A stretch of 64,000 nucleotides of DNA from Promethearchaeota archaeon. GTDB taxonomy: Archaea; Asgardarchaeota; Lokiarchaeia; Sigyniarchaeales; SOKP01. Positions 40,517-41,853 of this stretch are shown here, piece after piece (within the stretch, counting starts at the first letter, position 1; the number at the start of each line of letters is the position of its first letter). The DNA is taken from NCBI GenBank assembly GCA_048940445.1, contig JBHLON010000002.1:32001-96000 (forward strand). The letters are read 5' to 3'. The position numbers and the translations under genes are program-made. A model generated the notes under the pieces. The model did no database searches. It saw nothing but the letters and a program-made list of their open reading frames with translations, and was not told the DNA's origin.

Positions 40517-41853
40517 AATACTTCCGAATCTAAAACAATGGTATCTTTTCTTTCAGGACCAATTGAAATCATTGAAATGTTCGTTTGTAATTCTTCTTTA
40601 ATCGATTGAAGATATGCTTTCATAGTAGCTGGTAATGAATTGTATCCTTTCCTTGCGATTTCTGACCATTCCTCTCTCGATCTTTTATCCCAACCCTCAA
40701 ATTCTTTATATATGGGGGCAGATTTTTCAATTATTTCATGATGAATTGGCCAACTTTCTAAAATCTTTTCATTCAACTTATATCCAGTACACATCTTAAT
40801 TGGATTAATTCCTTCAAGAACATCAAGAAGAGTAATTATTACTTTATCTATCCCATTGAGCATTATTCCATATTTAATATTAAAAAGATCAATCCAGCCT
40901 ACTCTTCTAGGGCGTCCAGTAACAGTTCCATATTCATGCCCTTGTTTTCGAATAATTTCCGCAATATCACCAAAAAGTTCTGTTGGAATTATTCCTTCCC
41001 CCACTCTTGAAGTATATGCTTTAATAATTCCATAGATTTTACCCAATTTCTTTGGTGGAATCCCAGAGCCTGCACTAATTCCGAGAGCATTAGCATTCGA
41101 TGATGTCCCATATGGATACATCCCATGATCTAACCCTAATAAATTTCCCTGAGCTCCTTCAAAAAGAACTTTCTTTCCTGCATTAATTTCCTTATTAAGA
41201 TAGTAAGCTGTATCAATTACATAAGGTTTTAGTCGTTCACCGTAATCCTTGTATTCTTTATAGATTATTCCTATGTCCATGTCCCAGTTTGGGTCGTAAA
41301 CGTTAATCAAGGCTTTTTTTATTTTGAAAAGTTTTTCTAATTTAGATTTTAATATATCGGGATTGATTAAATCAAATATTCTTATACCCCATCTAGCAGC
41401 TTTATCGGCGTAAGCGGGACCAATTCCTCTTTTGGTAGTACCAGCGCTATATTCTCCTTTACTTTCTTCCTCTAAACCATCTAGGATACGATGAAAAGGA
41501 AAGATTACATGTGCAGTTGAACTTAACTTTAAATTTATTTTTTTATTTAAATTTTTTAAGTTATCAATTTCCTCCAAAAGAACCTTTGGGTCAACAACAA
41601 CTCCATTTGCAATTACATTCTCTTTTTCTAATGGAGCACCAGAGGGCATCAATTTGAATTTATATTTAATTCCATCAGCAACAATTGTATGTCCTGCATT
41701 GTTACCACCATTGTATCTTACGACTATATCTGATCTTTGAGCTAAGAAGTCAACAAACTTACCTTTTCCTTCATATAGGGTTAAGAGCATCCTGCATCAT
41801 TAATCTCCCCAACTTAGCCCAATAACAGCAATTGTGTTTACTTTATTGTCCAT
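40513..41853 (-). CDS. purA: Adenylosuccinate synthetase (436 aa after removal of the 30-nt insertion; exons 41853-41805 and 41774-40513)
   Basis: [17 protein letters not shown]|[52 protein letters not shown]. Confidence 0.92.
41775..41804 (-). other. Putative bulge-helix-bulge(loop) mRNA intron in purA
   Basis: Sense AUUAAUGAUGCAGGAUGCUCUUAACCCUAU with in-frame UAA UGA; central helix GGGG/CCCU, bulges AGA and AUA, inner stem UUAA/UUAA; cutting after the second bulge nucleotide restores GGA GAU GAA. Confidence 0.75.

Follow-up and report, generated by a model that had tools for sequence, protein, structure and literature searches.

The window, by which we mean the whole stretch of 64,000 nucleotides that was analysed, carries on its minus strand the gene purA, whose product makes AMP and acts in purine synthesis. 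This gene is interrupted by an insert within the codon of its catalytic aspartate (Table 1). From the ATG, a frame of 17 codons ends in WGD and is followed by 30 extra bases with in-frame TAA and TGA, after which EGKGK and an open frame continue up to the terminal TAA; these features were described in the initial annotation, and all of its coordinates hold. The match of purA to the Pfam family PF00709 starts at model position 1 and runs across the insert, with one TGA and one TAA inside it. Read unspliced, the frame gives a peptide of 17 aa that stops just inside the insert, and the predicted spliced product has 436 aa. The track of open reading frames placed the start of the protein at MLLTLY, and this ATG indeed lies inside the insert (position 41790). 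As had been pointed out, a product beginning there would be devoid of the catalytic Asp (Asp13 in Escherichia coli numbering), and the first beta-strand would be missing as well. For the divergent neighbour of purA (window positions 42001-42879, plus strand), Pfam gave a hit to the GIFT domain of IFT52 that is weak but exceeds the cut-off (E 7.9e-9).

Table 1. Features of the purA locus (window coordinates) and candidate mRNA introns elsewhere in the same genome (contig:position)
Feature	Location	Strand	Remarks
purA exon 1	41805..41853	minus	49 nt = 16 codons + G of the Asp17 codon
Intron (insert)	41775..41804	minus	30 nt; two in-frame stops; inner hairpin
purA exon 2	40513..41774	minus	begins with AT of the Asp codon
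TATA-like box, candidate promoter	41925..41933	minus	about 70 nt upstream of the purA ATG
5′ bulge AG/A	41804..41806	minus	predicted cut between 41805 and 41804
3′ site AU/A	41774..41776	minus	predicted cut between 41775 and 41774; located in an open loop rather than in a closed 3-nt bulge
Central helix, exon-1 strand GGGG	41807..41810	minus	predicted to pair with intron end
Central helix, intron strand CCCU	41777..41780	minus	predicted to pair with exon-1 end
Inner stem (UUAA/UUAA) and hairpin of intron	41781..41803	minus	predicted
Outer exon-exon helix, exon-1 strand	41813..41822	minus	predicted
Outer exon-exon helix, exon-2 strand (LAQ codons)	41737..41746	minus	predicted; 10 bp, one G-U
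Small exon-2 side hairpin	41747..41760	minus	predicted only (RNAfold, 5/7 sequences folded); would complete a three-way junction
fwdA, candidate BHB mRNA intron	C47:64002	plus	one of ten candidates of 21-38 nt
Mevalonate kinase (mvk), candidate intron	C78:74291	minus
GH38 mannosidase, candidate intron	C78:67401	plus
uvrA-like gene, candidate intron	C63:31236	minus
AIR-synthase-related gene, candidate intron	C61:8911	plus
Rubredoxin, candidate intron	C21:44709	minus
Rab-like GTPase, candidate intron	C72:22765	minus
uL11, candidate intron	C61:46028	plus
metG, candidate intron	C10:14384	plus
LMW phosphatase, candidate intron	C84:60595	minus
Small gene, family not assigned	C134:109550 (L275:750)	plus	30-nt BHB-shaped insert, 8-bp inner stem
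Small gene, family not assigned	C87:4005	minus	30-nt BHB-shaped insert, 8-bp inner stem

The closest named relatives of the host are MAGs of Promethearchaeota (Lokiarchaeia), in agreement with its earlier designation as an Asgard archaeon. Protein and Pfam searches found no second purA in the same 93% complete genome. A genome of the same genus contains a second, distant PurA-like frame of 352 aa (G028:C75:16984-17826), and none was found in this genome. The insert itself is a real feature, neither an assembly error nor a chance occurrence. Logan contigs of the DNA runs X1 and X3, both of which are possible sources of the assembly, cover it with zero differences, and these contigs, which drop rare variants, contain no DNA joint that skips it. 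Independent assemblies of many species carry it as well, which answers the concern about an assembly artefact that had been raised beforehand. Chance is ruled out because 23 sequences share the site, the ends and the single register that restores the frame.

These sequences come from a set composed of loci drawn from the genus, GTDB loci and metagenome loci, all belonging to the same family-level clade. At this site, 23 distinct PurA sequences of Promethearchaeota carry the insert, and 59 relatives lack it. It is 30 nt long in 10 sequences, 31 nt in 11 and 32 nt in 2, with 20 different sequences in all, and the other introns share 16-27 of 30 bases with the one described here. Among the best 30 loci of the genus draw, seven have a 30-nt insert and 23 have none; besides this genome, six genomes of the same genus, with 79-86% protein identity, carry it, and it is absent from the purA of Promethearchaeaceae such as Loki-B35. 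The alignment of related purA genes suggested in the initial annotation yielded both the presence and absence pattern and the exchanges within helices that had been looked for. MAGs titled Hodarchaeota, Thorarchaeota, Hermodarchaeota, Odinarchaeota and Nanopelagicaceae contain PurA sequences that are 74-84% identical and nest among Lokiarchaeia; their titles are probably mislabels.

Exon 2 of eight intron-bearing sequences evolves with dN/dS values of 0.06-0.24, mostly 0.07-0.11 (about 0.08), which indicates that purA is under purifying selection and that the gene is alive. Between this purA and those of L004-L007, dS reaches 1.5-1.8 with an unchanged junction, and recent descent is therefore no explanation for the invariance of the junction. 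On a quick maximum-likelihood PurA tree, intron presence requires 9 changes, at least 5 of them forced by well-supported branches, and two deep-branching PurA sequences carry the intron. One old gain followed by repeated precise loss is the simplest and most likely reading, although the tree cannot separate gain from loss; repeated gain at the same site is a possible alternative history, and recombination between species may also have contributed. An origin of the intron as a copy of a tRNA intron of this genome is unsupported, since it has no Rfam match and no second copy in the genome, in which only 17 tRNA loci were resolved. One relative, L103 (SDNY01000046.1, AMARA_1S), has a second frameshifting insert of 31 nt in purA, about 85 nt past the first. 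It lies directly after the His of NAGHT and can form a central helix of 4 pairs, and the BHB register restores the consensus Thr.

The position at which the insert would have to be cut is narrowly defined by the comparison. When both cuts are slid together, WGDEGKGK is restored in 23 of 23 sequences at shift 0, that is, after the second base of each bulge, as the initial annotation had proposed for this genome; this is the only register to do so. The motif is restored at shift +1 in 14 sequences, at +2 in 13 and at -1 and -2 in one each, and at the remaining shifts in none. The codon that follows Gly at the end of exon 1 reads GAT in 13 of 23 sequences and GCT, GTT, GAA or GGA in the other 10, and therefore the Asp codon must be built from the G of exon 1 and the AY of exon 2. 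L093 and L118 are examples with GCT or GTT; in this genome, taken by itself, the register is ambiguous by two bases. This residue, Asp13 of PurA, is essential and 99% conserved (PMC12884076; PMC8515928). Upstream of the cut, the Gly codon is GGA in all 23 intron-bearing sequences, compared with 18 of 59 intronless ones. In the 5′ bulge, A and G are invariant and only the third base varies (A in 14, C in 5, T in 3, G in 1); at the 3′ site, the first and third A are invariant and the middle base is T in 16, A in 6 and G in 1. Both variable bases are internal to the intron and have no pairing partner, and the positions that are retained or paired in helices are invariant. The first complete codon of the intron is the stop of the unspliced frame in 19 of 23 sequences.

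The pairing of GGGG with CCCU that had been described is possible, and the 4-bp central helix it would form is preserved in 91 of 92 cells over the 23 sequences, with G-C/G-U exchanges; the single exception is a G-A mismatch in L091. The first three pairs of the inner stem are retained in 22, 23 and 20 of the 23 sequences, with U-A/A-U swaps, and arms folded with their own partners reach -4.0 kcal/mol, compared with -1.9 kcal/mol for swapped arms. The 3-nt 5′ bulge is closed by the intron stem everywhere except in L117, where the bulge has 6 nt. The letters of the two bulges and of the UUAA/UUAA stem are thus as the initial annotation gave them; the 3′ site, however, appears as an open loop of about 15 nt and not as a closed bulge, and it is predicted to be unpaired with a probability of 0.97. 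Such a loop is larger than that of the Mini-BHL substrates that have been tested, and cleavage by EndA is thus not guaranteed.

The outer helix had been considered weak. This is correct directly beside the 3′ bulge, where exon-exon pairing is absent in this genome, but a strong long-range helix of 10 bp between the two exons is predicted instead. A long-range clamp of this kind is found in 14 sequences, which have the Ser codon AGT. In 9 sequences with TCG or TCC as the Ser codon, a local helix adjoins the 3′ site instead; this is the type of a sister group, and it leaves one unpaired U opposite the bulge. The PurA tree places L089 and L091 in the sister clade, yet they have the long-range type of clamp (AGT), possibly through local recombination or convergence. 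The mean energy of the exon-exon duplex is -12.8 kcal/mol in intron-bearing sequences versus -7.3 kcal/mol in intronless ones, although the sequences are kin and P values overstate this difference. Folding energy is otherwise modest: the 76-nt local fold is no better than shuffles (z +1.7) and does not count as evidence. Ensemble prediction at 37 °C gives the central helix a probability above 0.5 in 14 of the 23 sequences and a value close to zero in another five; for this genome it is 0.69 at 37 °C and drops to 0.19 at 20 °C. Alternative pairing of exon 1 with the intron, which might gate splicing, plays a minor part here (0.2-0.9 pairs), and its fold is not conserved. No closed 3′ bulge beside an adjacent exon-exon helix, as in the strict BHB (hBHBh′), is predicted, and we class the purA motif as a relaxed, HBh′/BHL-like substrate. 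A relaxed BHL form had already been suggested, and the reason for it, according to the predicted structure, is the position of the 3′ cut within a multi-branch loop.

The genome encodes the enzymes that such a substrate would need, namely two EndA paralogues and RtcB (PF01139, E 2.7e-168). Tyr, His and Lys, the catalytic residues, are all present in one EndA paralogue, and the other has no His. The catalytic (alpha) subunit is closest to subunits of the crenarchaeal heterotetramers 3p1z (E 3e-38) and 3ajv and aligns with them gap-free across the region of the N-terminal loop, a part in which the homomeric enzymes give no alignment. Relaxed motifs are cut by heteromeric EndA that has the crenarchaeal-type loop (PMC5829648, PMC2724299), and judging from these alignments the host EndA is of the two-subunit, broad-specificity type. 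ARAGORN detects only 13 tRNAs in this 93% complete genome, and more emerge when BHB-shaped inserts of 18-34 nt, some of them at non-canonical positions, are removed. Candidate tRNA introns of 30-33 nt occur in Arg, Gln and Pro tRNAs, and those of the Arg and Gln tRNAs have the same geometry as the purA intron, without an adjacent outer helix.

These observations make it very probable that the purA insert belongs to the archaeal tRNA type of introns, here within an mRNA and spliced by proteins, namely EndA and RtcB. The purA pre-mRNA would fold into a relaxed BHB, in which the 4-bp GGGG/CCCU helix is accompanied by a closed 3-nt 5′ bulge resting on the intron stem, while the 3′ site would lie in a loop kept shut by the 10-bp exon-exon clamp. 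Each site would be cut behind its second base by a heterotetrameric EndA, and the G would be joined to AU by RtcB, giving the codon of the catalytic Asp17 (Asp13 in E. coli) and a PurA of 436 aa; mRNA that escapes splicing would yield only the dead 17-aa peptide. The initial proposal that a housekeeping mRNA is spliced here by the tRNA machinery is supported by the fit of the comparative data to what EndA and RtcB are predicted to do, and it is from this fit that we infer splicing.

Removal of the insert from the RNA at the same places by an enzyme other than EndA and RtcB, or excision at the DNA level in some cells, has a small probability. The non-canonical 3′ site and the marginal fold in several species would suit a different enzyme; however, in 23 of 23 sequences the register coincides exactly with the one that EndA uses, and in size the insert falls far short of a group I or group II ribozyme and matches no Rfam family. 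Excision from DNA is opposed by the lack of any contig that skips the insert, among contigs that drop rare variants, and of a second copy in the genome. Programmed ribosomal bypassing, for which T4 gene 60 and the mitochondrial byps are precedents, would require take-off at the GAU before the stop and landing 30 nt further on. In this genome an Asp codon does precede the stop and a hairpin does follow, but in the 10 relatives with another codon a hopping ribosome would leave the catalytic position occupied by Ala, Val, Glu or Gly, and the landing codon, TAY or AAY in 22 of 23 sequences, does not match the take-off codon; such bypassing is therefore highly improbable. Even harder to accept is a working variant enzyme made from the unspliced mRNA by stop readthrough or from the internal start at MLLTLY. 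An in-frame ATG is available here, but internal starts occur in only 5 of 23 sequences, and their product would be without the essential Asp13 (PMC12884076) and the first beta-strand. The 13 of 23 inserts that shift the frame, together with the 10 sequences that have no Asp codon before the insert, argue against readthrough and ribosome hopping alike. In-frame stops in a MAG may also suggest a pseudogene or an assembly error, but with independent assemblies of many species carrying the insert, a dN/dS of about 0.08 in exon 2, and a second break in L103 that is a further motif-restoring 31-nt insert and not decay, this explanation has practically no probability left.

A protein-spliced intron in purA would not stand alone in this genome. 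A first homology scan, mostly with queries from the same genus, recovered purA only. With a motif-free homology scan, purA was found again together with four further frame-breaking inserts of 21-31 nt with a 4-pair central helix, located in the AIR-synthase-related gene and the genes for the Rab-like GTPase, mevalonate kinase and LMW phosphatase. An ab initio scan searched for a stable motif whose removal fuses two coding pieces and compared the true cut with cuts displaced by 1 or 2 bases. At -4 kcal/mol, a threshold picked after inspection, it gave 9 matches of 28-35 nt at the true cut, of which at least one is false, versus 0, 0, 0 and 0 at the shifted cuts. With all lengths admitted at the same threshold, there were 14 matches versus 2-4. 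A loose version of the scan gave almost no excess; for the signal to emerge, the motif has to be stable and constrained and the downstream gene has to be a called one. With these settings, the genome-wide search for further BHB-split genes recommended in the initial annotation has produced an excess. In fwdA, mvk, the GH38 mannosidase gene, the uvrA-like gene, rubredoxin, uL11 and metG, predicted splicing restores what we take to be the motifs of the respective families. By its sequence features, the purA intron looks the same as these and would be one of about ten or more such candidate mRNA introns in the genome (Table 1).

Other matches that ranked high in the scan (C100:13946, C14:2477 and C56:9027) were rejected as ordinary coding sequence or gene pairs. 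Candidate introns lie mostly within the first 35 codons (purA, mvk, GH38, uL11, phosphatase, rubredoxin and the two small genes), and most of them sit in conserved motifs. This 5′-end clustering could reflect 3′-biased loss through cDNA, or a detection bias. As regards other genomes, a 1.6-Mb sample of G050 (37% of the genome) had no excess at the true cut, which does not show absence, and 1.07 Mb of the same-genus genome G008 gave one homology-based candidate. Frame-breaking inserts of 30 nt in G008 (L168:18148, minus strand) and of 31 nt at L115:4494 (minus strand) have relaxed motifs, and the homologue used as the query is intact.

Most likely, a permissive, broad-specificity EndA tolerates the purA intron as a passenger that is old in its family and has been precisely lost several times. 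This reading is favoured because most relatives do without the intron and no switch fold turned out to be conserved; the use of splicing efficiency to regulate purA and other split genes is doubtful. On a wider scale, it is likely that one family of Lokiarchaeia routinely uses its tRNA machinery to splice many housekeeping mRNAs, among them those of purA, metG, uL11, mvk and fwdA. If so, this family would represent a prokaryote with genome-wide, protein-spliced mRNA introns that are still being gained and lost, in a lineage that ranks among eukaryotes' closest relatives. It would follow that mRNA introns need neither a spliceosome nor a nucleus to spread in a prokaryote, under coupled transcription and translation, which bears directly on how genes containing introns became tolerable before eukaryotes. 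Gene callers truncate such proteins, and annotations and metabolic reconstructions of Lokiarchaeia would contain false pseudogenes. purA also offers a selectable test of splicing, because adenine prototrophy would need it.

The comparison with HAC1 and XBP1 made in the initial annotation holds in part. In these systems the nuclease IRE1 acts on two stem-loops under the control of stress, and the ligase of XBP1 is RtcB. The proposed chemistry in purA is alike, in that an endonuclease cut and joining by a tRNA ligase would turn on a reading frame. The purA motif is, however, a BHB and not a pair of IRE1 stem-loops, and no stress- or purine-dependent control was found.

Among archaeal systems, non-canonical tRNA introns of Asgard archaea (PMC11291895; bioRxiv 10.64898/2026.10.13.758758) have the same motif and would depend on the same enzyme, and the candidate tRNA introns of the host include some with the size and geometry of the purA intron. 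In contrast, the purA intron lies in an mRNA without a tRNA body, whereas both reports, in the passages searched, treat tRNA genes, and the word mRNA does not occur in the preprint. The intron of HVO_1309 in Haloferax volcanii is another EndA substrate within an mRNA, but it lies in the 5′ UTR and breaks no reading frame (PMC7714728). Splicing within an archaeal coding sequence was, as of 2020, documented for cbf5 only (PMC7714728). No further confirmed intron of this kind appeared in the literature searched, with subscription papers mostly outside its reach, and unconfirmed predictions of such introns were mentioned in 2009.

The cbf5 pre-mRNA intron, reportedly described by Watanabe in 2002, therefore provides the main point of reference. 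In Desulfurococcales and Sulfolobales it lies between the first and second bases of the catalytic Asp codon (Yokobori 2009, PMC2738675). The purA intron resembles it in being short, in occupying the same position of a catalytic Asp codon, in its relaxed BHB with a predicted cut after the second bulge base, in the heteromeric EndA of its host and in its patchy presence among lineages. It differs in the gene (purine synthesis), in the phylum (Asgard), in the long-range exon clamp, in the two insert sites within the purA of one relative and in the about ten more interrupted genes of the host genome. Moreover, splicing of cbf5 was demonstrated by cDNA, and that of purA is proposed from the comparison of DNA sequences. 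What is new is thus chemistry of the cbf5 type in a new gene and a new phylum, apparently multiplied across a genome. With every tested feature of a BHB intron present except the strictly closed 3′ bulge, the purA intron probably works like that of cbf5.
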